Source: Vermamoeba vermiformis
Taxonomy: Eukaryota
Assembly (NCBI GenBank): GCA_045837725.1
Contig: JBEWZL010000012.1
Span: 1 to 64,000, forward strand
Length of the DNA stretch: 64,000 nt
Direction of reading: 5' to 3'
Translations under genes and position numbers: made by a program
In this document: positions 1 through 64,000 of the stretch, piece by piece
How positions within the stretch are numbered: the stretch's first letter is position 1
How the letters are laid out: each line of letters starts with the position of its first letter
The notes under the pieces: model-generated
Told to the model about the DNA's origin: nothing
Database searches by the model: none
Seen by the model: only the letters and a program-made list of their open reading frames with translations

Positions 1-112
1 GGTTGCCGTCTCAGTAGGTTTTTTAATTGAAAAATATGCTTTTAATTGTCTTTTTCAAAATTTAACAGATCGTTTTCTCGCGCGCAGAAGGAGACAACGA
101 TTTCTGGTTTCA

Positions 113-440
113 ATCGTCTTTGCGCGGAGACGAGATGCAAGACTTTGTGTTTTTTTGACATCGTCTCCACGTGGAGACGACCTGCAGGACTTTGTTTTTT
201 TCTTGGATCGTCTCCGCGTGGAGACGACCTGCAGGACTTTGGTTTTTTTGTGAGATCGTCTCCGCGTGGAGACGACCTGCAGGACTTTGTTTTTTTGTGA
301 GATCGTCTCCGCGTGGAGACGACCTGCAGGACTTTGTTTTTTTGTGAGATCGTCTCCGCATGGAGACGACCTGCAGGACTTTGTTTTTTTCTTGGATCGT
401 CTCCGCGTGGAGACGACCTGCAGGACTTTGGTTTTTTTGA
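113..440. repeat. Tandem array of ~7 copies of a 47-bp unit containing a hairpin (TCGTCTCC-gcgt-GGAGACGA), the palindrome CCTGCAGG and a T-tract
   Basis: Unit gatcgtctccgcgtggagacgacctgcaggactttgtttttttgtga starts at ~160, 207, 254, 301, 348, 396, with a degenerate copy at ~113. The short ORFs here are repeat artefacts. Confidence 0.95.
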
Positions 441-780
441 GAATGTTACTCAGGGTGAGACTTCTTTTTTTTCCCGCAGATAATTTGCCAAAGTAAACTT
501 TTACTTAAGTAAAAAATCCTCGGGGGTAGAAAATTCTTTATTTTTTTGAGGGGGGTGTCAGGGCTAGCCCTATATGGGCAAGCCCACTTACATATATGAA
601 TATAAAATGGAAACTTTGTAGCTACTTTTTACAATATTTTATTTTTAACCCTCTCACCCCCAAACCCTAAAGCTATATTAATTCGTACCATTTGTAAATT
701 TCCGTCGATCAAATCTGAATCGAGAAAATGACAGCCAAATTAATTCACGTAGGCCAGTGGAGAGTACGTAATAATTTCAA

Positions 781-12913: not shown

Positions 12914-15900
12914 TTAATTATCCTCCATTTCAATCGCACTGCTATGAACTGTTTTTGTCTTGGCGGTCGAACGACGTGAACTAAAGCCTGCTCGTCGCGA
13001 GTACTTAGAGAACAATGAACCGCGCTTGAACATCAAAATAAAGATGATGGCCGGTGCTAACTCGACAATGTACAAGAAGACCAGCACTCCAATCAGATTG
13101 CGTCCTGCAGTGTCGAATGAACTGTGCAGCAAATTACCCGCTTGACCCAACAAACAAAACGCTGATACGGCGGACACGATCACGAGCTGAAGGTTGGATA
13201 CCGGTCAATTTGGATTCATTAATGACGAATACTAGAGATGTACTTACGCGCATGATGGCGTGTTTTCGTCGTGCTTGTTTTGCAGCGTCACGGCCGTTAG
13301 TTGCGTTGTTGGTGCGCATCAGATGCAGAATGCGCACGCCGTACACGACAAAGAGCACCGAGAGTGTGACACAGACCAAGGCAAAGAAGACTTTGTAGGC
13401 AATAGCGACTCCTTCAGTGGGCGTGTGTTGATTCAATAACTCATCGGCACTCGTGGTGCAATCGACGACCAAGCGAGGATTGGGCAGTGTCAAGAAGAGA
13501 ATCAGGAGCACCAAGAAGATGATCACGAGTGCCACATTGATGGCAATGACGACTGGTTTCAGCTTGGAAAAGCCACTCGTGCCGCTAGAACTCATCGTGA
13601 AGTGGTAGATTTCAGCCCTGAAGGTTGATGTCAACTTGCGGTCTATCGTAATAATGTAGGTCCAGGTACGTACCAGCGCACTACAATCACCGAATAAATG
13701 GAGCAGAACAACAGCGCGGGTAATTCTGAGAAAATGACGTCGGCTGGACGTGACGCTTCCAAGGCACCAAACGGCAACAAGAACAAGTAGAGCAAGCGAA
13801 CTAATGGCCAGGTTAGAAATGACTGAGTGCTTATTAAATTGGACTTACTCAACAACACGACGGTTAAGATCAACAGCGCAATACGACCCAAGCTAAAGAA
13901 GCCCTTAGTACGCGCACTTCTAAACCAATCGATGGTGTGCATGGTCAAGTGATAGATCGTCAGCGCTTCGACGAGCAAGTACAACAAAATGCCGAAGAAA
14001 ATGATGAATATTTCTCCCACAAACAAGCCCTGAATGAAACTCGCGTCTTGGTAGTTCTCGATGACTGCAGCGGGGAAGAATGCAATCGGGTCTGTGCTGT
14101 TGTATTCTCTTTCTACACATGCCTCGCTGCATTATTTGTTAGGGACATATGACAAGATGACTGATGAACCTTACGTAGCATCGAGAGGGAGTTCCAGACC
14201 AATGTTTTGGAAGGCAAGGTAACTGCTGTTGAGAGGATAGGCAAGGTCAAAGTACTTGACTTCTAAGCTCGACGTCCAGTTCTTGGGCAAATTGAAGCAG
14301 AATACGACACCTTTCACGATCGGATTGATAGTTGTCAACTCCACGCCATCGCCAATCAGTTCTCCAACAGCTACACCGTGCTCGTTCTTAACGAACTTGA
14401 CTTGATCTGACTTGCCTGATTGAGACAGCGAGACTGACACGGAACTCAACGTCACTTGTTTGCGTTGAATGAATTGCGCCAAAGGTACCTAGATAGTCTC
14501 ATGTCAGGAAGTTACAAACAGATTAAATTTCACGAGTGCTACGTACGATTGTTATCGGCAGTTCAGCGCAATCAGAATTCGACACAGCCACATCTGAAGT
14601 GACTACAATGTAGCCTGCTGGGTGATCAATCTTCGTGGGAACTGAGTTGCAAATTTGCGATGTCTGCACGACCTGCTTAGTGACACCGCCGAAGCACTGG
14701 CCATTCGAGTCTCGATCACTGCCACAATCACACGCCAAGTCGCCGATGACTTGAGCGCGCTGACCGTAGCGACAAAGAATGTTCGAGCTCACAATGTTCG
14801 AGTAGCGGCGCACAATCGAGCGGTTGTGGTACTCTTCGAACAACGTCGTGTTGACGAGTGTGACCCATGTGTTCGCTTGTTTGAATTGCCGTTGTACCCA
14901 GCGACGAGGAGTCCATTGCTCTTTGATCCATTTGGCTTGAGTCCACGTGAAGAACGGACGCAATTCTCCGCCGCACAAGCCGCACTCGGTCTCGTTCTTG
15001 AATGTCACACCACCCGGTCGTTGGTAGTACGGTGCAGCAGGCACTAACGAGCCAGTGATTTGTTGTTCGAAGCATGTCTGAGCCTTTGAAAGGCACTCAG
15101 ATTTCGTGGCTGACTTCACGTACCAATTGCTGAATGAAACAGCGTTAGGCCTGCAGCAACACAACTGCTCGATGGACTTACCCGCCCATGGCTTGACAAG
15201 TACTCGTCTCGTTGATTGATCCGTCGTGACATCCCAAGGGTGTCCACTCAGCGGTAGTGTCGCAGTTGCCATCGTCGTTGAAGGGCAGATGACAGCCGTT
15301 GAAATCAGAACACTGTCCTGCCAGAGCACACGTCGGCTCGTCAAAACAGTCAGCACAACCCTCGCAGAAATATCGGCTGAGACAGTCAGCTTCAGTGTTG
15401 TAGAGAGCAGAGGGCCAGCAAAAGCCAAGACTGGTGCAGGAGGCTTCGTCCGTGTAGACATTCTTGTACAAGGCCGTACCGGGCCTAAAAAATGAGTTGA
15501 TTATTAGACGTAAGGTCCAAATACTAAGAATTATAGGCACGTACCACCACTGCAGGGGACTGAGGCACGTAGCTTGGGTGGCACCTTGAGCTGTGCACAC
15601 GCCACCACCAGCCGTAGTATTCCATTGTAACGCAAAGCCGTTTGTAGTACCACTGCAGGTGCCTACACTATTCTTTGTTGGATCGAAGCAGTACGCGCCA
15701 CACATGCCCTGTTGAGGTCATTAGCGCTCGCATGCAAAGTGTCAAAGTCACGTACCGAACTGACGTCAGTGGGACATCGATCAGCTGGGAAACAGGTGCC
15801 GTTGTAGCGGTAACAGATCGGCACTCCATTGTTGGTCGAGAGTGGATTGATGTGCCCGCCAAAGTCATTGACACATTGTGCTGATGTGCCGAATGACATG

Positions 15901-19696: not shown

Positions 19697-20416
19697 TTAC
19701 AAGACTAGTGATAAAAATACCACAAAAATACTGGAAATATACAGCTTTGCCGCTCCGCTTGAAGGAGCAGGGATTTGAACAATGCACGCGTACGCGGTGC
19801 CACCGTTGCATTGATTGAGCGGCAAGGTGCTAGTCGCGCAATTACCTTTGCAATTTCTCTGGTCGCAATTGCGCGCTACGACTCCGTTCTCATCGCACGT
19901 GTAGTACGAGCTGACTGTTGTTCCGTTATTGGTCTCTTTGTTGTTGATGCAGGTGGGGATCGGGGAAACATATCGAAGCAAGATCTGCGATGAAGCGTCA
20001 CAATTCGCAGTAGAGTATTGTACAATCGCGATGGTGTGGTTGATGAACGAATCTGGCAGCGACGGACATTTGTACAGCGTGGATTGGTTGTTAGGATTTG
20101 TTAAGCATTGTAACGTGGTTGTAGTGGGTGAGCTGCAGTTGTTGCATTGGCTGTCCGTGCACAAGGTGGTACTGTAAGAAGATGCGCCGTCTTCGCAATT
20201 AAGTTTTTGGTATACTCCTGCATTTTCTGGCACTGGAATGCAAGTATTTAATGGATATATAGTCGATGATTGTAATCTATCGTCGCAATTGGCTCCAAAA
20301 AATGTTGTAACTGAAAATGCTTTGCTGGGTGTCACGATCTCAACTTGTTGCGCATAGCCTGAAAGAATATTACTAAAAACCATACATATAAATATATAGA
20401 ACCGTAGACTCTTCAT
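19697..20416 (-). CDS. Secreted/GPI-anchored Cys-rich surface protein; single exon
   Basis: Signal peptide MKSLRFYIFICMVFSNILSGYA (likely start 20416), two Cys-rich repeats, and C-terminal PSSGAAKLYISSIFVVFLSLVL typical of GPI signals. Confidence 0.8.
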   Translation of the reverse strand: MKSLRFYIFICMVFSNILSGYAQQVEIVTPSKAFSVTTFFGANCDDRLQSSTIYPLNTCIPVPENAGVYQKLNCEDGASSYSTTLCTDSQCNNCSSPTTTTLQCLTNPNNQSTLYKCPSLPDSFINHTIAIVQYSTANCDASSQILLRYVSPIPTCINNKETNNGTTVSSYYTCDENGVVARNCDQRNCKGNCATSTLPLNQCNGGTAYACIVQIPAPSSGAAKLYISSIFVVFLSLVL

Positions 20417-20606
20417 TTCAGCAATGTATTGTCTCTTGTTGTGTACGTAGAAGATTTTGTGATAAAACAAGATTGTGAGGCCATGGGCAGCGCAACAACT
20501 GGCCCGAAAAAATAATCTGTTTGAACTGCACGTAAATACTAGAATAGCACAATAAGCTACTGTCAACATAATACGTTAAGTAAACAGCGAGCAAAGAGAG
20601 GTCAAA

Positions 20607-49243: not shown

Positions 49244-50386
49244 TCACATGGGTGCGAGAGGATTGTGCGAGGGTCCAGCAGCATTCATTTCTGCTTTGGG
49301 CTTGTTCTTGAACGTCAAAAACAACTGCAATCGTTGACACGTTAGTCATTGCCTAATATGGTAATCATCGTGTACGTACCTGAAACGACTTCTTCTCTTT
49401 GTCCCACGAGGTCCAGAACTTGCTCTTGGCGCGGTCAGGGTCAATGTACCGTTCAATTTCGTAATTGGGAATTTTGAATGCAATTGTCTCGTAGGGCTCA
49501 GCAGCGAACAGGATGTATTGATAGCGACGATCAGGGGCCTCTTTCTTCTGTTCAAATGTCGACATGAAGCGATGACGTGGCTGAAATCCCTCTTCAATCT
49601 CGGGGTAATCAATCTGAAACAGCAGACTCAGCGCATTGCTCTCGGCATCGCGCTGCTTCGTGACGCTGAAACCTGGACGACCAATCTTCACTGTGCGCTT
49701 GGGCTGCACGACACCGACCTTCTTGGTGACACTGAGCGAGGGCCCGGCCACTGCTGGACCTGCGCCCCCGTCTGTCATGCGCTGATCACGTGCTGCTCGG
49801 CGCGCCAAGTTCATTTGATGGCGCTTGCCCTGTCACACATATGACGTGAGTACTGCGTGGTTATATAGAAGGGGGGTGCGTACCTGTGTGTGTGCGAGGT
49901 ATGAGCCTTCATTCGTGTGCAGCGTGAGACACAGCTTGCACTCGTACGTGCCCAAGTGGTTCTTCATAAAGTACGGATCCTGCATGCAAAGAGTAAGATC
50001 GTAGCTCTTGTAGTGGCACATTAGTGAGGGTAATGATGTACGTACCTTGGATAAGTCAATGGTCTCCAAAGCTAATTGACGCAATCGTTCGCGACGATCG
50101 ACATTGCTATCACTGCCTGATGCAACTCCTGCTGAGCCGGGCTTGCTACCAAAGTCCCTATAATACCAAGGGTCAATATTTACTCTTTTAATATGAATTT
50201 TCATCGCAACCACAACGATCCAAGGAAACTGCTAGCAGATTTTATTTATTAATTTGTTTTGAACCAAGGAAAATACTAATTATTTACAAAAATTACTAAG
50301 ACATATTAAATAATATTGGCACGATAGATAACAATTTATTATTTAATGAGAATTATCGCTTAATTTGATAATACTTACTTGGACAT
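49244..50386 (-). CDS. SF3A2: Splicing factor 3A subunit 2 (SAP62/Prp11); multi-exon with an 8-nt first coding exon
   Basis: DRRERLRQLALETIDL.KDPYFMKNHLG.YECKLCLTLHTNEGSYLAHTQ, KIGRPG, and QYILFAAEPYETIAFKIP. Confidence 0.95.
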
Positions 50387-52409: not shown

Positions 52410-52824
52410 CCGATACTGTACAATACAGTTATATGATGAAGCGCAACGTTGTGTTCTGGGGAGGCTGCGTCGAGAGCGGACTGGGCGTACTATCTATCTG
52501 ACATTGCACGCAATTGATGGAGCTGGAATTGAGAAATACGCGTAATTATCAATGACCCCCATGATTACATGAATCTTGATCCTATTTTCAATTTCGTAAT
52601 GCCCTTTGAATACTTCTGTTTATCAGCTGTTCCGTAACGTTTACGATCAAAAGATCGCACGCATCGCGCCAGGTCCACGTGAGCACCGTTCAGTGAATGA
52701 CTTTCCAACCGGTCCCGTTCATGAAAATTCAAAATCGCGGAGGATTTTTTGACAACTTGCGCACCGCTTCATTCAATTAATTTCTAGCACTCAACACCAA
52801 CACCACACAACACTATAGACTACA

Positions 52825-54789
52825 ATGGGTCAAGGCAGCTCCACTCGTAATAGCGACGACATCGTCAGATGGGCGCACAAGAAGCAACAACTCGACAAGC
52901 AAGAGGCTTTACGTCGTTCTAATCGCGACAACTTAATCATGATAGACCCTGATGCAGTCACTTTTGAAGACGACTCTGAAGACACGCGCATGCCTGTCGA
53001 TCCTGAAGGTTTCAAGCAGATGTTGAGGAAAATGGGCATTAAATTTGTTGAAGAGGACAAGTACGTTGCATAGCATTCATAGCATTCATACCATTTCAAA
53101 TCATATCTTACTAAACGCTCTATTTAGTGCACCACCTTTCAATGCAGATGCTGTGGTCAAAATCAATTCCACGTTGCAACAGCCCGACTACACGTTGCCC
53201 TGGCAGACATTGGACGTCGCTGAAGCACGAGGTATGTAGTGGAGTGATTGGCATGATCATGTATCTAAGTCATTGTCAAAAGGTTCTGGTGCTGTCATTG
53301 AAGGCGGATTTGTTTTGACTGCTGCTCACGTGATCGCTGACTGGACCTTCGTAAGAGTGCAATGATACTGAATATATATTAGCAGTATTAACACCATTCA
53401 CAGCTCGAAATTCAACGCGGCAATGACAAGTGTCCCGCCAAGTAAGTTACACCACAATTCCTCGTGAAATACTTGCAAAGACTAATCACGTGCGCAGAGT
53501 GGTCGGAGTGTGCAATGACAGTGACCTCGCACTGCTCAAGCCCACAGACGAGAACTTCTTCAAAGACATCCAGCCGCTCAAGATTGGTCCCATGCCGCCT
53601 CTCCGTCACCGCATCTACGTGGCTGGTTTTCCGATTGGTGGCGAGGAAATTTCCGTGACTGAGGGTGTCGTGTCGCGCATTGAAATTCAGCCGTACAGCC
53701 ATTCACTGAAGCAATTGTTAGCGATTACTGTCGATGCTGCCATCAACAGCGGAAATTCTGGCGGTCCAGTGATGAACCAGCACGGTGAACTCATCGGTAA
53801 TTGCCTAATTTGGAAAACAATACCTTGTCACGTGCTGACTGTCGCATTCAGGCATTGCATTCCAAGCCCTGGAAGGAGCCGAGAACATTGGTCACATCGT
53901 GCCCCCGCCAGTGATCAATCACTTCTTGGCGGGCATTCAGAAGTTCGGCAAAGACTACCGCGGATTTCCTGATTTGGGCTTGGCCGTGCAGACCCTCGAA
54001 AACGCCAATCAACGCGCGTTGTTGGGACTGCCGCACGAACTGACCGGCGTGCTGGTGGTGCGCGTGCACTACAACAACAGCTGCACCAACGTCCTGCGCA
54101 CGGGCGATGTGTTGCTGAAGATTGGCGAGCACGTGATTGCCAACAACGGCATGATCACCTTCGACACCAAGCTGCACGGAGATTTCACGCTCGCTGTGCA
54201 CCAGTACCAAGAAGGTGACACCGTCAAGTGCGAAATATTCCGCGAGGGCAAGGTGCAAAGTGTCGATGTGACGCTCAAGTACCCGCACGACCTCGTGGCC
54301 AGTCACCGTTACAACGAGCAGCCCGAGTACTACATCTATTGCGGCCTCTTGTTCCAGCCCCTCTCCGTGGATCTGCTCGAGGCCCACTTCTCGGGGGGTC
54401 TCTTGTCGGCCCCGCAAGAACTGCTCTATCTCAGCACGCAGGACGAGACTGCTGAGCGCGCGGAGATTGTCGTGTTGACACGTGTCTTCAAGGACGACGT
54501 CAACTTTGGATACGAGGCCCTGCAGTTCAGCGTGATTCGCTCGCTCAACGGCACACCCATTCGCAGCGTGGCTGATTTGACACGTGTCATTGAGAGCACC
54601 GAGAGCGAGTTCTTGGTGTTGAAAGCATCGAACGACGCCACGATTGTGTTGCCGGGTGCTAAGAACAAACTCGCGACCAAGGCCAACAAACGCATTGGCA
54701 AGCGCTATGGCATCAAATACGACCGCTCAGCGCTGCTCGTGCAAGAACAGAACAGCGATCCTGCGCCCTCGGAGGCTGAGAACAAATAA
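52825..54789 (+). CDS. Deg/HtrA trypsin-like serine protease with PDZ domains (plant DEG2/9-like); multi-exon
   Basis: AVVKI..PDYTLPWQ, LTAAHV, DSDLALL, GFPIGGEEISVTEGVVSRIE, DAAINSGNSGGP, and YYIYCGLLFQPLS. Confidence 0.93.
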
Positions 54790-56429: not shown

Positions 56430-59400
56430 CTACTGCTTGGTGAGCAAGTGAATCAGCTTGTTGATCGCATCGATCCACTCATCGCACTCCTCTTTGGTGT
56501 CAGCAGCAACGGTGTAGATGCGCTCAGGTGTTTTGAGTTCAAATGCGTAGTACTGATGGGTCTTGAGGGTGCGCGGAGTGCTGGGCTGCACAAAGGGACA
56601 CAGCGAGAGGTGAATCACCGCATCGGGCTTGGACTTCTTGGGCTTGAAGTACTTGAGACTGCCGTTCTCGAGCACAAACTTGTACTTCTTGTACTCTTTC
56701 TTGCGATAGCGGTACAGCGTGCCTTGTTTGTTCATCGCAGCCACGAGACTGGTGTTCACCTCTCTGTCGCGGTGTTCAATCTCCGACTTGGACTTGACTG
56801 ACGAGCTGCTGCCCGTGCTGTTCACGCGCTTGATGTCTTTCTTCGAGCGCTGTTTGCGCGGTGACTTGTCGCGGTGTTCAGTGCTCGGGGTGGTCGGGGT
56901 GCTGGGCGGCTCTTCAGCAGCGCGGATCTCTTCTTCGTACTTGAAGCTGATCCACTTCCAGCGCGCTTCAACTCCGTCCTTGGCATTGGGCGGTGTCAGA
57001 CCAGCCACGCGCTGCTTGTACTTGTCTTTGTGACGCGCGTTGTTGACCTGTTTGCAGGCAGTGACGTCATCAGCGGACCACGTGTTGGGCTTGTCGAGGG
57101 CGCGCAGTCTGTTGAGTGCTTTGAAGGTCTGATGACTCTGTGCACAGTCGCTGCAGATCCAGGCCTGCACCGCGAGGGACATGTGCGTGGTCTCTTTGCC
57201 GCACTCGACGCACACTTGATTGTCACCGCGTCGACTCTCTTGCACGGCTGCAAATGTGCTGTCCTTGTCCTTGGCCTCGCGCTGCTTGAAGTCGTACAGG
57301 AACAGATAGACTGACTTGCGAATAGCGTTGATCCACTGCAACTTCTCGTCGAGATTGTTCGCGGACAAGAAGTAGATCCGCTCGCGCGTCAAGAGCTGGA
57401 AGCTGAAGGGTCGATCGACAATGCCCAGCGCACGCGCAGTGCAACTGAGCACGTGAACGGAGCCCGAGGGTTCAATGACATTCGGCACCTCGACTGTGAT
57501 GCCCTCGTCCTTGATCACCGTCACATCGACCTTCTGCTCGCTCTCTGCGCGCAAGAGATAGTCGTGCACGGTCTGCGGCGAGGTGTTGACGACAGTCGTG
57601 GCCGAGTGCGTGACAGCACTGACAGCATTGATCAGCGAGTCCACCACCACTGCTGCAGACTTGTCTTGAGCAGGGTAGTAGTTGAGAATGCAGCCGTTCA
57701 GCACAAAGTGTTTGCACTTCCACTCATCGTGCTTGCCTTTTTTGTACAAATCGCCCTCCATGAAGACCTTGCCGTTCATGAACGCGAGCGATTTCTTCTC
57801 CTCTTCTTCGCGTCGCTGCGTGGTGTCAAACAGACGTGAGCGCATGGCCTCGAGCTGCAGTGAGATGGAGTCGTCGAGATCGCTCAGCCAGTCGTACTTG
57901 TCTTGACTCGTTGTCGCGGCTAAGATCACCGTGCGACGTTCTGCCACGGAGGCAGGGAGCGGACTGTCACTGCCGCGACCAGGGCCAGGACTCGAGGGCG
58001 CAGTGATGGCATTGGCCATGGACATATCACCGAGCGAATTGGACTTGGCGCGACTGCCGTTCATGGCCACGAGACTCTGCGCGGCAATCACTGCGGGCCC
58101 GACTTGCGTGACAATGTTGGGCATGTCAGAGCCCTGGATCTGGAACAGATTGGCGTATTTGATGGACTGCTGGTCGTTGATGTTGTGCAGCTCAGCTTGT
58201 TTGAGGGGCACAATGTACAAGAACTTGAAGTCCACATCGCTCTGCTTGAGCTCGTCCATGGTGTACGCGCTGGGATGTGCGCCACTCTTGGAGGCCTTGC
58301 GCGCACTGCTGGCACTCTTCTCTTTGGTGACGACGATAATGTCCGTGAACAAGAAGCAGTAGCGCATCTTGGCACGCACCTTGCTGGCATCGAAGGTGGC
58401 AGGGGAGCTCATGCCGTCAATCTCCAATAAGCGCCCTTGACGCACGTAACGGCGATGCGGCACTGCAAAGTTGTAGTTGGGATCGAGACCCGACAGCTTG
58501 CCCCAGATGAGCAGCGTGTTGTTCAAGTTCTCGGCCTCGCGCTTCTTTTCATTCACGTATTCAGCGACGGACTGCATCTTCTCGAGTGCTTTCTTCAAGT
58601 TCTGATAGTCTGCGTGACTCTCGGGTGTGTTTTTGAACAGATCTTGCAGCAACAGCACGTAGCGAGGGATGCGCTGCACGGGCAAGATGAGGAACGAGCT
58701 GATTTCGAGGTTCTCGCACTCGGGACGTGCGCGACACTGCATCAACAGCTCGAGCACTTGCGGCTTCTTCATGACATTGAACAGCGTCGAGCACGCCGTG
58801 TTGTAATTGTTCACGTAGGCAGTGTACACCTTGAGGTACTCGGTCATGGCCAAGAAGATGTCGCCCAACTTCTGTCCCGACGAGTACCACTTCTCCATGC
58901 GTGCTTTGAGCTGCTTCAAGATCTCGGAATTGTACAAGCGAATCACCTCGCTCTCGGAGAAGATGCTGCGCAACATGGCCGGCGAGACGAGTTCTGCGGG
59001 CAGCTTGGAGAGTGCATCGAGATAGACGGACTTGAGCACCTCCAATCGACGCACGTACACCTCCTCTGTGCTGATAATTTCGCGTGCGATTTCATTGCGT
59101 TTGAAGCGTGATTTCATCTTTCTGCGCTGCAATCTGCCGCGCACGAGTGCTTGAATGCGCACCAGGCCCTTGTATGCGCTGCTCTCGGTGTGCGTGAAGG
59201 ACTGCAGCACCGCGTCCAAGCGCGTCATCATGCGTCGATACTTGACTTGCGCGAGATATCTGCGAATGAGACTCTGCGCCATGACAATTGCACTCTCCGA
59301 CAGTGCAGGGGTGCTGCGGTGCACGGCGAGAGGACTCGTGCCCGTGGTTGGACTGCTCGCGGGCAGAGGTTCGCGCTTCACGAGCGGTCGTTCGTCGCGC

Positions 59401-60181
59401 AGTGTGGGCTTGGCGATTGCGCTGTCAGTGGCTGAAGTCGCGAGACTCTGTGCCTTGCCTGCACTCGGCATGGAGGTCACCGAGGCAGTGCGTTGAAATG
59501 GATCTGGTGGTCTCTTCCACACGCGGTTGTGTGGCATGCCGTCTGATTCCGCACTCGCTGCTGGTTCTGCTGCTGGTTCAGGATTCTTTGTCTTGTTAAT
59601 CAACAAAAATATCAAGCCCATGACTTGTTTCTTGTTTCCCTCCATAATATCTGCAAGCAAAATAATTGTGTGAGTCGTGAAATTTAAATTGAATTGACCA
59701 ACAATTAAATCGGCATTATTTTGATAATAATTTCATTTGCTAGACTGTCACTTTTTAAGTTAAGTATGAATTAACTGGACTAATATTGTATATAAAAAAA
59801 TCTTTCTTACCATTCGCGTTAACCGAAAACAAATTCACGCTCCAATGACGCTCAATAAAGCGAATTCCCGTCATAATGTTATCTACCTTTTGACTAGGGA
59901 ACTTAGGGTTGGGATTGTAGCGGCCAACCTTCTGGCCGGTCAAAATTTCTAATAGCTGAATCAGAACTACTCCATCTCGAAAGTCGGTTGCAAAATCAGA
60001 CACAGTTCGATTTTTGACAGCTAAGTGTCGATTGGCCCATGTCAAAAATGACTGATACAACGAGAATTAATAAGATTTGTAATGAAAATCTTTTTTCTAC
60101 CTGATTCTGGATGTCTCCCCAATCGGTACTGAGCGAGTGGACGGCTAAGTCCCCACTAGACTGACTGGGCTGTTGCGTCAT
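56430..60181 (-). CDS. GxcDD-like RacGEF: CH + 2 IQ + DH + PH + PH + ArfGAP-like + PH; 3 exons
   Basis: CH (FLTWANRHL..DFRDGVVLIQLLEIL), IQALVRG, REIISTEEVYV..LILPVQRIPRYVLLL, PH motifs, CVECG..CSDC, and a C-terminal PH. This matches the known Dictyostelium GxcDD architecture. Confidence 0.88.
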
Positions 60182-60444: not shown

Positions 60445-61428
60445 ATGTCACAAATTCCCGACGCTCTCGCCCTCACTCAAGAGGATGCTCGTATGATGCT
60501 TGCTTGCAACGTCCACATTGGTTCTACCAACTTGGACTCTGCTATGGAGCGATACATCTGGAAGAAATCCTCCTACGTTAGAGAGAAGGAACGCGAAGGT
60601 AAAAATGGGAATAATTAAATAAATAATAATATAGCAAAAGTAATTTAAATTACGCCAATAACACTATTGTTATAATTTTTTAAGTTGTGGATCTTCGATC
60701 GTGGAGTTGATATTAATTGTATAAAATATTAATTTTTTATTGCAGGTGCTTACATTATTGACATTCGCAAGACCTGGGAAAAGATCGTCTTGGCTGCCCG
60801 CGCCATCGTCGCCATTGAGAACCCCCTCGACATTGCCGTCGTTACCGTCCAAGGTACTGGCGAGCCCCTCGCTCAACGCGCTGTGTTGAAGTTCTCTCAA
60901 TACACCGGTGCTGCTCACTACGCTGGTCGCTTCACTCCCGGTACCTTCACTAACCAGATCCAAAAGCAATTCGCCGAGCCTCGCTTGTTGATCGTTGCTG
61001 ACCCCTTGAAGGACCACCAACCCATCATTGAAGCCTCTTACGTCAACATCCCCGTCATTGGTTTCTGCAACACCGACTCCTCGCTCCGTCACGTCGACAT
61101 TGCCATTCCTTGCAACAACAAGTCCCGCTTCTCCGTTGCTTTGACCTTCTGGCTCTTGGCCCGTGAAGTCTTGCGCCTCCGTGGCACCATCTCCCGCTCT
61201 GAACCTTGGGACGTGATGGTCGACTTGTTCTTGATGCGCTCTGCTGCTGAACAAGAGAAGGCTCAATCTCAAGCCCAAGCCCAACAACAAGTTCAATCTA
61301 CTCAACAAGCCAGCTACGACGAGTTCATCGCCAAGGGTACCACCACTGGTCAAGGTATCGTCGGTGCCAGCACTAACTGGGCTGATACCCACGAGGATGC
61401 TGATGAGCCCCCCGCTGACTACGAATAA
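60445..61428 (+). CDS. RPSA: 40S ribosomal protein SA (uS2); 2 coding exons
   Basis: [45 protein letters not shown], and [17 protein letters not shown]; strong ribosomal-type codon bias. Confidence 0.97.
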
Positions 61429-61560
61429 GAGCCCTCTTCTAGCGAATTAAAATAATAAAAAAACCTTAAAAAGTACCCTTTTCACTTGATATGAGGTCCA
61501 AAGAAATTGTAATTAATAATGCAAATGTATTTACAGCAAACAAATGTACACAACAAGTCT

Positions 61561-64000
61561 TTACAAGCCCACGATGTTTTGCACCGCTCTGGCCAGTTGC
61601 GCAATGTTCAAATCGGCGGAAGAACTCAGCGCGTGCAGCACTGACGCGTCCAAGAATGTTGGCAAAGCTTGGCGCGTGAGATCGTAGCGCAACAGATCGT
61701 GAATGCACGCGAGAGATTGCACCACGACTGCCGCATTGTGATGTGCCAGCAGTGCGCTGAGTGGTGGCAAGCCCTGATCGATTACAGACTGCAAATGAGT
61801 GCTGTCCAAGGTCGATTGCACCAATCGCAGCACGTGAAGGATGCGGAGCTGGAGCTGAATGTCATCTGCGAGGGCGAGGGTCTTGAAGCAGTGCGTGGTG
61901 AGATCACGTGACATGAGTTCCGCGCGTGCCCTGGTGGAGAACAACATGTTGCCGAGCAGCATCACCGCGTTGTGCACGATCTGCAAATCACTGTTCTCTT
62001 CGCTGTCCATGTACTCCATAGACACGTGTGCCAGCATGCTGTCCAACACTGTCACGTGATTGGTCACAATGAACTCGCGGTTCTGTTCAGCGAGCGTGAG
62101 GTGCATCAGTGCCAACAGGACACTCTCGCGCAATAGACTGCTCAGCCGTGCGGTCTGACTGCTGTCGTGCTGCACACTCGCTGCGAGCTGGTCGAGGTCA
62201 CTGAGCAGCGTCACCAGGGCGCGCAAGACACCTGTCACGCGCATGTCATCCTTAGCTGTCTTGCACAGTGACAACCAACCAATCAGCTGCACGCTGTAGA
62301 TGACATCTGCCAGGGACAGGGCACTGCGGTCCACGTGCTCGGTGTGATATCCGTCGTCGGGGAGTGTTCCTAATATGGTCAACACCGTGCGCAGTGCGGG
62401 CATGACATCTTGCAGCAGAATCAAGTCGCGCACGTGATTGGCGGTCTGAGCGAGGGTGAGCAGCATGAGCAGCGTGGTCTGACGTATACCAGGGCCGTGC
62501 TCTGGATCACAAGCACGTGACAGCGACTTATTTAGCAAGAGCACGAGACTCTTGGTGAGAGTGGCGAGGTGATCGGCATCGATCTGTTGTGTCACGTGAT
62601 GCGGATTGTTCATGAGCACGCGGTACATGATCTGCAACACGGCTGTCAAATCGCTGTCCAACAGTGGTTGATTGGTCACGTGATCGCTCAAAAACAGATT
62701 TTGAAATCCCGCCAAATCGAGCAGGGTCGTGATGGCATTGCTCTGCTGTGAGAACGCATCGAGTCCGATCTGCGTGCGTGCCACGGCTAATAATAGCTGC
62801 ATGCCACTCGTCTTGATGCTGTCTACCAGGGCTTGTTGTGCCTCCGTGTCACTCGGGCCTGAACTTTGCACTTGTTGCGTCATGTCGAACATCACGGGAT
62901 TGGTGCTATTTTTGGGAGTGAACAGCGCGGCATCTTTCGTCACGTGACGACGCGAGGCGAGCACGGTGAGCAAGAGATCGACCAATCCGTGCTGCGCGAG
63001 CACTACGAGCACGTGATCGGTGTCAGCGAGCGATTGACACGCGCGAATGACATTGTACTGCAGCTGCAACAGACGCGTGTCATTCGGGGCACTCTGCGCG
63101 GCACGGTGCGACAGTCCCAGCACGGCAATCAAGTACTGCAAAGATTGCGCTGCCACCAGTCGGGGCCACAGTCCGCGATGCTGGCACAGCTGCACGATCA
63201 CGCGGCAACCGTTGTAAACACCCGCGAGATCTCCCTCGCTGCCCTGGTGTGTGAATCCAGTCAGGCCACTCACCAGGGCATCGAACTGCACGCGGGACAG
63301 CTGTCGTTCGTCGCGCACGTGCTCCACGATGTTTCCCAGCAAAAATGTGGCAAAGTCACGTGTCTGCTTGTCCGATGAGCCGAGCAGATTGATGACACGT
63401 GTCAAACTCGGATCACTGGCGAGCAGGCTGTCGACACGTGATCGATCGCCCGAATTGGTGCTGGTGATCAGTTCGCGCAGTGCCAGCAAGCGCCCTTCGC
63501 GGTGTTCAGATGCCAGCACGGCTATTAATAGCTCCACGCCACCCTGTGCCACCACACTCGACCACGTGCGCGGATCTTGCAAGCTGGCTGCTGTCACTGC
63601 TGCCACTAACTTGCCTAATAAGGCAGGGGACAACTCGTGCTCGACGATGAGTGTTACCAAAATAGGCAGTAGATCGCGTGATTGATCAGGGCTGGACTGC
63701 AAAGATAGCAGCAAGTCTACCGTGGCTTCAATTGGGGGAAGTTTTTCCGCAGGTGGTTGTGCCGAGGCTAAAAATAGCGACAGATTGCGTTTCAAGCTCG
63801 CGATGAGGTCCGGTGACTCGACCAGGGCAGCACGTGACTGCGGGTGTTGCTTCACCATGGTGGACAGCACGTGCACCAGGGCCAGTGCTTTTTTCATTTC
63901 CATTTTAGGATCAGTCACGTGCTCGTCGCCCTGGTTGAGCATGTTGCAGAGTGCCAGCACGCCACCCATGTTGAACCACGTGACAGCAACGCTCGCATCG
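61561..64000 (-). CDS. Armadillo/HEAT-repeat protein, 5' end beyond the window
   Basis: Open frame >800 aa running off the window end; Leu-rich helical repeats (GGVELLIAVL, GLVDLLLTVL, GVLRALVTLL, GLPPLSALL). Confidence 0.8.
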   Translation of the reverse strand, partial: DASVAVTWFNMGGVLALCNMLNQGDEHVTDPKMEMKKALALVHVLSTMVKQHPQSRAALVESPDLIASLKRNLSLFLASAQPPAEKLPPIEATVDLLLSLQSSPDQSRDLLPILVTLIVEHELSPALLGKLVAAVTAASLQDPRTWSSVVAQGGVELLIAVLASEHREGRLLALRELITSTNSGDRSRVDSLLASDPSLTRVINLLGSSDKQTRDFATFLLGNIVEHVRDERQLSRVQFDALVSGLTGFTHQGSEGDLAGVYNGCRVIVQLCQHRGLWPRLVAAQSLQYLIAVLGLSHRAAQSAPNDTRLLQLQYNVIRACQSLADTDHVLVVLAQHGLVDLLLTVLASRRHVTKDAALFTPKNSTNPVMFDMTQQVQSSGPSDTEAQQALVDSIKTSGMQLLLAVARTQIGLDAFSQQSNAITTLLDLAGFQNLFLSDHVTNQPLLDSDLTAVLQIMYRVLMNNPHHVTQQIDADHLATLTKSLVLLLNKSLSRACDPEHGPGIRQTTLLMLLTLAQTANHVRDLILLQDVMPALRTVLTILGTLPDDGYHTEHVDRSALSLADVIYSVQLIGWLSLCKTAKDDMRVTGVLRALVTLLSDLDQLAASVQHDSSQTARLSSLLRESVLLALMHLTLAEQNREFIVTNHVTVLDSMLAHVSMEYMDSEENSDLQIVHNAVMLLGNMLFSTRARAELMSRDLTTHCFKTLALADDIQLQLRILHVLRLVQSTLDSTHLQSVIDQGLPPLSALLAHHNAAVVVQSLACIHDLLRYDLTRQALPTFLDASVLHALSSSADLNIAQLARAVQNIVGL

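Follow-up and report, generated by a model that had tools for sequence, protein, structure and literature searches.

Why do 10-base words of the kind expected for MADS-type transcription factors recur inside a long intron-free coding stretch of Vermamoeba vermiformis, and do they follow from the encoded protein, from splicing or from codon use, or were they selected in the DNA itself? This question is raised by an ARM-repeat coding sequence at the end of a window of 64,000 nucleotides (GenBank assembly GCA_045837725.1, contig JBEWZL010000012.1, positions 1 to 64,000 of the forward strand), which was analysed as a whole. Judged from their sequence and distribution, the 10-mers may be selected double-stranded-DNA elements, grouped in intragenic arrays with putative MADS and E-box readers, a reading to which we give roughly an even chance.

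The ARM exon and its motif sites

The open reading frame (ORF) of the ARM exon comprises 812 codons, with its stop codon at 61561-61563 and an open 5' end that passes the end of the window. The in-window part by itself gives only weak Arm/HEAT matches; the longer ORF of the orthologue matches Pfam ARM_ARMC5 with 98 bits (cut-off 79.9) and has FYVE and WW domains upstream. With the ARM ORF as query, a word-indexed search returned no matches among proteins of 446-1421 residues, an exhaustive search returned nine weak relatives, and Protein Atlas gave for this ORF only generic ARM look-alikes with recognition under the usual level. Rfam had no matches within the 64-kb window. RNA contigs cover the exon gaplessly at 61558-64000 (run X3), 61601-63284 (X2) and 62317-63363 (X1), so that the absence of introns asserted in the preliminary description holds for 61561-63999; it does not hold for the gene as a whole, which has introns further upstream, visible in the orthologue.

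All seven 10-mers that had been listed in this ORF, and the CCTAATTTGG listed in an intron at 53804, lie where they were placed, and an eighth in-ORF site, CCATTTTAGG, can be added (Table 1). Four of the eight are strict CC-W6-GG words (62369, 63614, 63657 and 63900) and three are strict CTA-W4-TAG words (62787, 63522 and 63768). The site at 63522 together with its flanks forms a perfect 12-base palindrome, GCTATTAATAGC. The interleaving of the 10-mers with CACGTG, also reported earlier, is borne out by 20 such sites in the ORF, often flanked as TCACGTGA or CACGTGA[CT]. By sequence, then, the sites carry the CArG-box core CC(A/T)6GG, the MEF2 core CTA(A/T)4TAG and a strand-independent CACGTG core with palindromic flanks.

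The sites at 62787 and 63522 have about 22 of 24 flanking bases in common and also the peptide G-x-x-L-L-[IL]-A-V.

Table 1. Coordinates of the ARM exon, its motif sites and the motif-bearing genes and introns of the window
Feature	Position	Strand	Content	Orthologue or support
WW-WW-FYVE-ARM gene, last exon (in-window part)	61561-63999	minus		ORF, RNA contigs, orthologue domains
CCTAATATGG, SRF-type CC-W6-GG	62369..62378		sense ACC ATA TTA GGA = T-I-L-G	lost: sense CCATTTTGGG
CTAATAATAG, MEF2-type CTA-W4-TAG	62787..62796		sense CTA TTA TTA = L-L-L	identical
CTATTTTTGG, hybrid CTA...GG form	62906..62915		encodes P-K-N-S	identical
CTATTAATAG, MEF2-type	63522..63531		sense CTA TTA ATA = L-L-I	identical
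CCTAATAAGG, SRF-type	63614..63623		sense GCC TTA TTA GGC = A-L-L-G	identical
CCAAAATAGG, SRF-type	63657..63666		encodes P-I-L-V	CCAATTTTAG, still C[CT]W6[AG]G
CTAAAAATAG, MEF2-type	63768..63777		sense CTA TTT TTA = L-F-L	identical
CCATTTTAGG, SRF-type, absent from the preliminary list	63900..63909		encodes P-K-M-E	identical
CACGTG array, 20 sites	61831..63982		interleaved with the 10-mers in the ARM ORF	
CACGTG, first ten starts	61831, 61905, 62023, 62053, 62332, 62431, 62514, 62593, 62677, 62941			
CACGTG, last ten starts	63010, 63316, 63357, 63396, 63435, 63563, 63831, 63868, 63916, 63977			
TGACACGTGTCA, 12-base palindrome in ORF	63393..63404		encodes L-T-R-V-I	CACGTG core and flanks kept
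ACCAGGG(C), 9 copies, both orientations	61929..63935		further enriched word, absent from the preliminary description	
ACCAGGG(C), starts	61929, 62213, 62488, 62825, 63242, 63272, 63821, 63875, 63929			
RhoGEF(DH)-LRR gene	42785..48484	minus	inferred model is one intact 1629-codon ORF	Pfam RhoGEF and LRR
SF3A2 intron with CCTAATATGG at 49352	49325..49379	minus	55-base CT..AC joint	4 of 4 runs; Pfam SF3A2
Deg/HtrA-like protease intron with CCTAATTTGG (53804) and CACGTG (53829)	53796..53850	plus	55-base GT..AG joint	runs X2 and X3

Excess over synonymous coding and retention in an orthologue

Synonymous-codon shuffling of the ARM ORF over 5000 rounds yields a mean of 0.395 words of the general form C[CT]W6[AG]G against the eight present, and no shuffle reaches eight. 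The counts of CTAW4TAG (3 against 0.03), CCW6GG (4 against 0.30) and CACGTG (20 against 8.47) are likewise reached by none of the 5000 shuffles, and ACCAGGGC, found nine times against 1.15 expected, attains nine in none of 1000. Beside ACCAGGGC, the words GACAGC, ACCAATC and ATGACAT are also enriched. Expectations for the whole window were taken from 100 dinucleotide shuffles, none of which reaches the observed counts: CTAW4TAG occurs 16 times against 0.71, with 15 of the 16 inside two motif-rich loci, CCW6GG 15 times against 2.64, and TGACACGTGTCA in seven copies against 0.00. If the pattern were put down to chance, to base composition or to the usual bias in codons and dipeptides, the one fact in favour would be that some 8.5 CACGTG sites are expected in the ORF anyway, owing to the many His-Val pairs of the protein and to the preference of the gene for CAC and GTG; but chance is excluded by the failure of any codon shuffle to reach the observed counts, and the enrichment is repeated in the orthologue, so that we regard the probability of this explanation as practically negligible.

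The motifs also account for most of the rare codons. The exon is GC3-rich (0.68), as had been described, and 12 of the 18 CTA, TTA and ATA codons of its ORF fall inside motifs, i.e., within 80 nt, while 8 of its 11 A/T runs of at least six bases are motif instances; rare codons are not randomly distributed here, and motifs exceed the shuffled expectation about 20-fold. Such clusters might be conserved in order to slow translation for the co-translational folding of the ARM repeats. The concentration just described would fit this, as would the retention of 10 of the 12 codons in the orthologue (2 of 6 outside motifs; p=0.11, not significant alone). However, other genes have their introns filled with these 10-mers, C..G flanks included, the exonic copies use two frames, the PKME, PKNS and PILV sites contain no CTA, TTA or ATA, the co-enriched CACGTG and ACCAGGGC consist of common codons, and a control exon of similar GC3 lacks clusters of this kind. 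We therefore consider an origin in translation speed highly improbable.

The placement of the motifs is independent of frame and strand. The 10-mers use frames 0 and 1 and give eight distinct peptides, by which internal protein repeats are ruled out as a source of the motifs; CACGTG occurs in all three frames, and so does ACCAGGGC, in both orientations. The A/T cores have no significant strand preference (15 T-rich, 8 A-rich and 7 equal; p=0.21). As many as 12 of the CACGTG sites are encoded as His-Val, a dipeptide that is found 12 times against 2.76 expected, and distant homologues with 27-31% identity are without it at the corresponding places; the protein sequence thus appears to bend to the DNA motifs. 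Counted against a reading as DNA elements is the spacing of the sites, which in both arrays has no convincing period between 8 and 60 bp and no helical or nucleosomal phasing; the best vector length was 0.23, with a single-test threshold of about 0.19 and approximately 100 periods tried.

Conservation was assessed with one orthologue, 81-86% identical in nucleotides and aligned without gaps over 2328 nt; in its intronic and intergenic DNA the identity to the window falls to 44-66%, i.e., to saturation. Six of the eight 10-mers are identical in it, one is altered within the family and one is lost; of 19 comparable CACGTG sites, 12 are kept and 7 differ. The 10-mers carry 4 substitutions in 80 positions and the CACGTG sites 7 in 114 (5-6%), against 373 in 2134 (17.5%) elsewhere (p=0.002 and p=0.0008, respectively). 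Synonymous codon changes are likewise fewer, viz., 4 of 23 in the 10-mers (p=0.03) and 3 of 34 in CACGTG (p=0.0002), against 244 of 610 elsewhere. The motifs were defined in the species of the window, which biases the test against conservation. The words are in excess in the orthologue as well, with 10 instances of C[CT]W6[AG]G against 0.41 and 13 of CACGTG against 3.35 (reached by none of 2000 codon shuffles), and its ORF beyond the extent of the window adds three independent C[CT]W6[AG]G sites against 0.06. The ARM exon sites, compared in this one orthologue, therefore have the lower substitution that marks a selected cis-element, and the alignment shows purifying selection on the exonic motifs, though the constraint is not absolute. 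In runs X18 and X3, near-identical RNA contigs have CCTAATAAGG broken by T>C at 63619, and this too is counted against the DNA-element reading.

The same alignment bears on a mobile origin, in which the motifs would be what is left of a small palindromic mobile element, or of introner-like mobile introns, that entered exons in frame and seeded introns. Introners are the subject of an Amoebophrya paper (PMC7789003). Unrelated introns do have strings of 17-18 nt in common, for example CTGACACGTGTCAAACAG (28988 and 47607, and 5360 in the orthologue L001). Yet not a single indel is found at the motifs in the ungapped alignment, and the C-terminal alignment with distant homologues has no added block at the places of the E-boxes. 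The units measure 10-12 nt, have no target-site duplication, occupy positions that are shared and ancient, and lie in hydrophobic peptide stretches of helix-like character (LLIA, LLLA and LFLA). Neither indels or presence-absence differences nor a longer element were found, the strings common to introns being at most 18 nt, and a mobile origin seems to us very unlikely. Exonised introns, a further candidate source, are ruled out by the lack of indels and of splice-site remnants.

The same words in the introns of certain genes

The RhoGEF-LRR gene has 15 introns in its coding region, each of 47-59 nt, placed by ORF continuity and not by RNA reads. C[CT]W6[AG]G is present in 12 of the 15, and 14 of the 15 have either this word or TGACANNTGTCA. 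Of 23 joints found in the RNA contigs, 15 are listed; among the RNA-supported joints listed elsewhere in the window, 2 of 15 introns carry a motif. The exon that follows the motif-bearing intron of the Deg/HtrA-like protease gene matches Pfam PDZ_3 and PDZ_2. Intronic copies of the SRF type are extended to ATTGCC-W6-GGCAAT, which we take to resemble the longer Mcm1 P-box palindrome, and CCATATTAGG presumably matches the c-fos SRE core.

In all, the window contains 48 C[CT]W6[AG]G sites, 30 of them in 44.4-49.4 kb and 61.5-64 kb. No enrichment was found in the control exons 56433-59732, 42788-44479, 41018-42472, 60745-61425, 36960-38036 and 14526-15500; the first of these, 3.3 kb long and similar in GC3, contains no motif and no rare-codon cluster. 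The Deg exon is enriched in CACGTG only (3 against 0.83). The association of rare codons with motifs, for which a genome-wide test had been proposed, is found within the window in the ARM exon, the control exons being without comparable combined enrichment, and the motif effect is a property of certain genes and not of GC-rich coding sequence generally.

Within introns, the copies are placed after the 5' splice site and ahead of the branch point; in several cases (CTATTTTTAG|, CCTAATTTAG|) the 3' splice site is itself part of the motif, and TGACACGTGTCA shares bases with the CTGAC branch point. Sites are moreover almost confined to transcribed DNA, with none seen in AT-rich promoter or intergenic DNA, and this placement speaks against DNA elements, as enhancer sites would be expected in promoter and intergenic DNA too. 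These features, together with a slight and non-significant excess of T in the sense orientation (104 T, 76 A), would suit motifs that act in RNA, either as targets of RNA-binding or splicing proteins in the pre-mRNA or as self-complementary palindromes that pair; the exonic ARM copies would then act on the transcript, e.g., by controlling its retention, its export or cryptic splicing. On the other hand, palindromy and the lack of an orientation preference are unexpected for single-stranded RNA sites, and short W-rich palindromes would be likely to form weak hairpins only. The exonic copies are retained in mature RNA, being unspliced in every RNA contig that crosses them, and 13 of the 15 RNA-supported introns listed elsewhere work without motifs. 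Action in RNA is, on balance, unlikely. The motif system at the level of DNA that the preliminary description had proposed is in turn supported by the use of two frames, the absence of strand bias, the conservation at synonymous sites and the unspliced state of the exonic copies.

Intragenic arrays and their putative readers

Selected elements in double-stranded DNA could account for these observations as follows. The 10-mers would be a by-product neither of the protein sequence nor of splicing nor of codon bias and, with CACGTG/TGACACGTGTCA and probably ACCAGGGC, would form intragenic arrays of roughly 10 sites/kb over 2.5-4 kb, present in a few genes of the organism. A gene with introns would have the sites placed in its introns, at about one per 50-nt intron in RhoGEF-LRR; along a long intron-free stretch such as the ARM exon they would be written into codons, by means of rare CTA, TTA and ATA and of tolerated residues, e.g., His-Val. 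The putative readers are dimeric transcription factors, viz., SRF-type MADS proteins for CC-W6-GG and MEF2-type MADS proteins for CTA-W4-TAG, with a bHLH-Zip or bZIP protein as candidate for the ACGT-core palindromes. The arrays would act as gene-internal regulatory or chromatin modules. Binding by proteins, the identity of the binders and the function of the arrays are what we infer from sequence. The words ACCAGGGC, GACAGC, ACCAATC and ATGACAT stand outside the MADS and E-box classes, and the vocabulary may therefore belong to something other than MADS and E-box factors.

Arrays of this kind could also be intragenic mini-promoters, in which TATA-like CTATAAATAG sites with E-box and CCAAT-like words drive internal, antisense or small-RNA transcripts, or other chromatin or replication elements that mark nucleosome-free sites or replication origins. 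TATAAA or TATTTA lies within several of the MEF2-type sites, CACGTGA[CT] and ACCAATC are co-enriched, and each array is a separate block of about 2.5-4 kb. But many sites lack a TATA core (for example, CCAAATATGG and CCTAATTAGG), and the motif classes have no fixed spacing or orientation relative to each other; the RNA contigs, which carry no strand or start-site information, gave no sight of an internal transcript. We consider this quite unlikely.

Known systems resemble selected intragenic DNA elements in part. PMC3640940 gives the consensus of SRF as CC(A/T)6GG and that of MEF2 as CTA(A/T)4TAG, so that CArG/SRF/Mcm1 and MEF2 sites represent the same sequence classes, and both ancient MADS specificities would here stand side by side. 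Known MADS sites occur singly or in small numbers in a promoter, enhancer or first intron, whereas the putative sites described here are spread along gene bodies at about 3-20/kb, close to one per 50-nt intron, and are found also in codons. Plant introns contain signals for intron-mediated enhancement, and introns of germline genes in C. elegans contain periodic A/T clusters (PATCs). In either case short DNA words are concentrated in introns, in some genes only, and are thought to act from there on transcription or chromatin; in contrast, the words found here are specific palindromes of 10-12 nt without 10-bp phasing and are also exonic. In-frame palindromic elements of the Rickettsia type are insertions of 46-150 nt with empty sites. 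They too are palindromic words inside coding sequence, repeated across genes, but in the ARM exon there are no indels relative to the orthologue and the words of 10-12 nt are made by codon choice.

Reported effects of duons, by comparison, are statistical, genome-wide and disputed. Whether regulatory sites shape coding DNA is contested, since animals show only a weak, statistical signal. The likeness of our case to duons and exonic enhancers, as far as the available parts of these sources go, is that coding sequence has sites of transcription-factor type that affect codon choice (10.1101/2021.09.06.459186, 10.1101/085795). It differs in that the sequence of a single gene is enough to show motifs at 20 times their number in synonymous shuffles, the use of rare codons and a His-Val count four times the expected one, and in that the vocabulary is common to the introns of neighbouring genes. 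A literature search for TGACACGTGTCA gave, in the portions of text available, only unrelated Ebola-virus studies, and one on short introns, palindromic motif and CACGTG gave nothing on this phenomenon.

The finding matters in that one gene is enough to read off the overlap of regulatory-type sites with codons, and in that this overlap is conserved in another species, in which neutral DNA has reached saturation. Since the overlap is legible in one gene and the same words occur in almost every intron of a neighbour, dual-use codons could be tested cleanly at this natural locus. The pattern suggests that an intragenic DNA signal can be carried by introns or exons, the one in place of the other, and a function of very short introns beyond splicing may be revealed. 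More tentatively, and with distinctly less confidence, we raise the possibility of a gene-body code in this lineage, by which palindromic words (CC-W6-GG, CTA-W4-TAG, TGACACGTGTCA/CACGTGAY and perhaps ACCAGGGC) would be required at approximately 10/kb along certain genes, occupying nearly every 50-nt intron and being re-created in codons along intron-free stretches, perhaps once introns had been lost, for which rare codons and changed residues would be the price. If true, this would be a regulatory or chromatin system inside transcription units that has not so far been described in any eukaryote.

Motif enrichment in the ARM exon

The ARM ORF, the last exon of its gene, comprises 812 codons with a 3' stop, an open 5' end and a GC3 of 0.68. 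An exhaustive protein search with this ORF found nine relatives, all distant, and Arm/HEAT matches are weak when its window portion is searched alone. The longer ORF of an orthologue from a related species scores above the Pfam ARM_ARMC5 cut-off (98 bits vs 79.9), and exons upstream of that ORF encode a FYVE finger and two WW domains; the gene therefore encodes a WW-WW-FYVE-ARM protein. The stretch 61400-64000 is found in 20 public runs, which belong to 10 studies and bear about ten different organism labels; this suggests a source organism that is widespread as an associate of other samples or a contaminant in them. The organism is a eukaryote whose ribosomal protein SA reaches 96-98% identity with metatranscriptome proteins alone; the hits that come next, some of them from animals, stand at 63-70%.

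The preliminary description had reported seven sites of the form C[CT]W6[AG]G (10-mers, mainly of the SRF type CC-W6-GG or the MEF2 type CTA-W4-TAG) in this ORF and an intronic CCTAATTTGG; all are present, and CCATTTTAGG, absent from that description, is the eighth in the ORF. The eight encode PKME, LFLA, PILV, ALLG, LLIA, PKNS, LLLA and TILG in two frames, and CACGTG is spread over all three frames (12, 6 and 2 sites). Rare codons are indeed concentrated in the motifs, since 12 of the 18 CTA/TTA/ATA codons lie within the eight 10-mers, that is, within 80 of the 2439 bases of the ORF. When synonymous codons were swapped between occurrences of the same amino acid, leaving protein and codon usage unchanged, none of 5000 shuffles reached the observed count of 10-mers (8, shuffle mean 0.395), CTAW4TAG (3, 0.03), CCW6GG (4, 0.30) or CACGTG (20, 8.47), in keeping with the earlier expectation of an excess. 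Eight of the 11 A/T runs of at least 6 bases in the ORF are motif instances; a 3.3-kb control exon (GC3 0.73) has 15 A/T runs of at least 5 bases and zero motifs. Motif enrichment is absent from six control exons in the window, two stretches having been left out as controls because their stop-to-stop frames include intron sequence, and the exon of the Deg-like protease gene is enriched in CACGTG (3 vs 0.83) and not in the other motifs. The window as a whole has more CTAW4TAG (16 vs 0.71), CCW6GG (15 vs 2.64) and TGACACGTGTCA (7 vs 0.00) than its dinucleotide shuffles.

An unbiased word scan of the ORF against codon shuffles also returned ACCAGGGC (9 vs 1.15), GACAGC (15 vs 3.0), ACCAATC (6 vs 1.0) and ATGACAT (5 vs 0.74). 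ACCAGGG(C)/GCCCTGGT is strongly enriched; its copies point either way and are read in all three frames, and 14 of the 18 ACCAGGG copies in the window fall within two motif-rich genes. The word is non-palindromic, and no known site was found to match it.

Conservation in the orthologue

A metagenome scan yielded two contigs of the related species, with an amino-acid identity of 91%. The ARM nucleotide alignment to these contigs is free of gaps (85.6% and 81.0% identity), and intron and intergenic DNA, with just 44-66% identity between the two species, is therefore saturated. Six of the eight 10-mers are identical in the orthologue, one is switched to another family member and one is lost; 12 of the 19 comparable CACGTG sites are kept and seven are one base off, and the ARM alignment contains no motif sites private to the orthologue. 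Substitutions affect 4 of 80 bases inside the 10-mers (p=0.002) and 7 of 114 inside CACGTG (p=0.0008), compared with 373 of 2134 elsewhere in the ORF, and synonymous codons are changed at 4 of 23 (p=0.03), 3 of 34 (p=0.0002) and 244 of 610 positions, respectively. Since the motif sites were picked in the window species, the bias of this comparison runs against conservation. These figures come from a single orthologue, which tempers any claim of strict constraint, and a T>C at 63619 that destroys CCTAATAAGG in near-identical contigs of RNA runs X18 and X3 counts against it. So does the retention of rare codons at 10 of 12 positions inside motifs vs 2 of 6 outside, a contrast that alone is not significant (p=0.11). 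Rare-codon pausing is a highly improbable source of the motifs, as it leaves unexplained both the intronic copies and the words built of common codons.

The orthologue is itself enriched relative to codon shuffles (10-mers 10 vs 0.41, CACGTG 13 vs 3.35; 0 of 2000 shuffles). The part of its exon beyond the window end holds three 10-mers vs 0.06 expected, and the array therefore runs about 0.8 kb past 64000, for a total of about 2.5-3 kb. A chance origin of the pattern, excluded by the codon shuffles, the window dinucleotide shuffles and the orthologue enrichment, retains a practically negligible probability.

Intronic and exonic carriers

Thirty of the 48 10-mers in the window lie within 44.4-49.4 kb and 61.5-64 kb, and its 60 CACGTG sites include 20 in the ARM ORF and 15 in a gene with RhoGEF and LRR domains at 42.8-48.5 kb. 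The model of the latter has 15 coding introns of 47-59 nt, whose removal leaves a single intact frame of 1629 codons; the introns were placed by continuity of the frame, and RNA coverage of the gene was too thin to confirm them. One or two 10-mers occur in 12 of these 15 introns, and a 10-mer or TGACANNTGTCA in 14; the 749 nt of intron hold 15 complete 10-mers and one more that lies on a boundary, vs four in the 4887 nt of exon. Among RNA-supported introns elsewhere in the window just 2 of 15 have a 10-mer, and in a survey with a looser regex 69 of 80 candidate introns lack one. Intronic copies are extended to ATTGCC-W6-GGCAAT (SRF type) and GCTA-W4-TAGC (MEF2 type), and two upstream ARM-gene introns of the orthologue contain TGACACGTGT, CTATTTTTAG and TGACACGTGTCAAACAG. 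Total site density is about 10 per kb in both genes, the main carriers being intronic 10-mers in the RhoGEF-LRR gene and exonic CACGTG in the ARM gene, which suggests that intron and exon are interchangeable as carriers.

As the preliminary description had held, splicing does not explain the motifs of the ORF, since contigs of four runs, identified as RNA because GT..AG and CT..AC joints are seen in neighbouring genes, cross it without gaps, and none of the 15 joints listed, out of 23, falls inside it. CC-W6-GG is present in each of two other introns that are spliced out. That the sites are restricted to transcribed DNA and overlap branch points and 3' splice sites would suit pre-mRNA elements, but such elements are unlikely given the palindromy, the orientation independence and the unspliced exonic copies. 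Mobile palindromes or introner traces are suggested by the 17-18-nt strings common to unrelated introns, but are very unlikely in that indels are absent.

The A/T cores in minus-strand genes are T-rich in 15 cases, A-rich in eight and equal in seven, without a significant strand preference (p=0.21). The ARM protein has 12 His-Val dipeptides vs 2.76 expected, every one spelled CACGTG, and these are missing from the corresponding places in relatives of 27-31% identity; it appears that the protein accommodated the DNA word, not the DNA word the protein. The DNA-level system put forward in the preliminary description is supported by the independence of frame and strand, by this His-Val excess and by the two orientations of ACCAGGG. 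The motifs are probably selected DNA-level elements of some kind.

Positions of the features discussed and of further observations in the window
Feature	Position	Strand	Remark
ARM ORF	61561-63999	minus	
CCTAATTTGG	53804		intronic
CCATTTTAGG	63900		
ACCAGGG(C)/GCCCTGGT	61929-63935; 43161, 45271, 45346, 45831, 48574		
12-mer TGACACGTGTCA	54578-54589; 63393-63404		Deg-like protease exon; ARM exon
14-base TTGACACGTGTCAT			Deg-like protease and ARM exons; one shared frame, L-T-R-V-I
X3 RNA contig (3228-nt record)	61558-64000		ungapped
X2 RNA contig	61601-63284		ungapped
X1 RNA contigs	62317-63363; 63365-63801		ungapped
X18 RNA contig	62386-62805		ungapped
Spliced introns with CC-W6-GG	49325-49379; 53796-53850		
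Control exon	56433-59732		
Left out as controls	45096-45878; 46293-46730		
GC-AG introns (GCACGT..., GCAAGT...)	46959-46911; 44660-44612	minus	putative introns of the RhoGEF-LRR model; frame kept solely by these, nearby GT donors break it
Introns with the same 17-18 nt end CTGACACGTGTCAAACAG	28988-29044; 47607-47554; orthologue contig L001 5325-5382		three unrelated genes; palindrome overlaps CTGAC branch point, just upstream of 3' splice site
Short direct repeat, GGGCTCTCTGGGTGTAGTCTCGCGCGG twice	43390-43460		last RhoGEF-LRR exon; encodes PRETTPREPTPRETTPREPSPR tail
Possible third small cluster	33419-33760		CTAAATATGG 33419, CTATTAATAG 33557, CACGTG 33755; surrounds ORF 33492-33809 (minus)
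Tandem or dispersed repeat	1-500		about 6 copies of strings like GGAGACGACCTGCAGGAC, ATCGTCTCCGCGTGGAGACGA (k-mer count); overlaps ORFs at 42-504
Weak match to Dictyostelid counting-factor-associated family CfaA_B_C; bZIP/Maf-type transcription-factor gene	19700-20575; 36960-38036		CfaA_B_C match below threshold, a hint of amoebozoan affinity
Deg-like protease gene	52672-54672		contig depth in X2 about 400-940 vs 5-130 for neighbours; only a hint of strong induction, contig depth being unreliable

Candidate readers and relation to known systems

Palindromy, strand and frame independence, presence in introns and exons alike and purifying selection together point to double-stranded DNA sites read by dimeric proteins. 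The arrays may thus be intragenic clusters of transcription-factor sites that would serve as regulatory or chromatin modules inside the gene, a proposal whose chances we regard as evenly balanced and for which we infer binding, readers and output. The ACGT-core palindromes fit bHLH-Zip or bZIP sites. The two A/T-rich classes match the SRF and MEF2 consensus sequences, CC(A/T)6GG and CTA(A/T)4TAG, as given in PMC3640940, which also credits Dictyostelium, an amoebozoan, with two genes each of SRF and MEF2 type. Difficulties for a transcription-factor reading are that promoters and intergenic DNA have almost none of the sites, that a search for a spacing rule in the arrays found none, that ACCAGGGC and GACAGC stand outside the MADS and E-box classes, and that known enhancers have a site density far below that of the arrays. 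That the arrays are instead internal mini-promoters, or nucleosome or origin elements, is distinctly unlikely.

The nearest concepts are dual-use codons and exonic enhancers (10.1101/2021.09.06.459186; 10.1101/085795). Intron-mediated enhancement and PATCs, which are sequence codes of introns, come close as well. Searches of open-access literature for TGACACGTGTCA and for palindromic intron motifs with CACGTG found no description of arrays of this kind, which does not prove absence. Taken singly, the words are MADS and E-box sites of the ordinary sort; it is their arrangement that is unusual, in gene-body arrays that place about one site in each tiny intron and, where there are no introns, spell the sites in codons.
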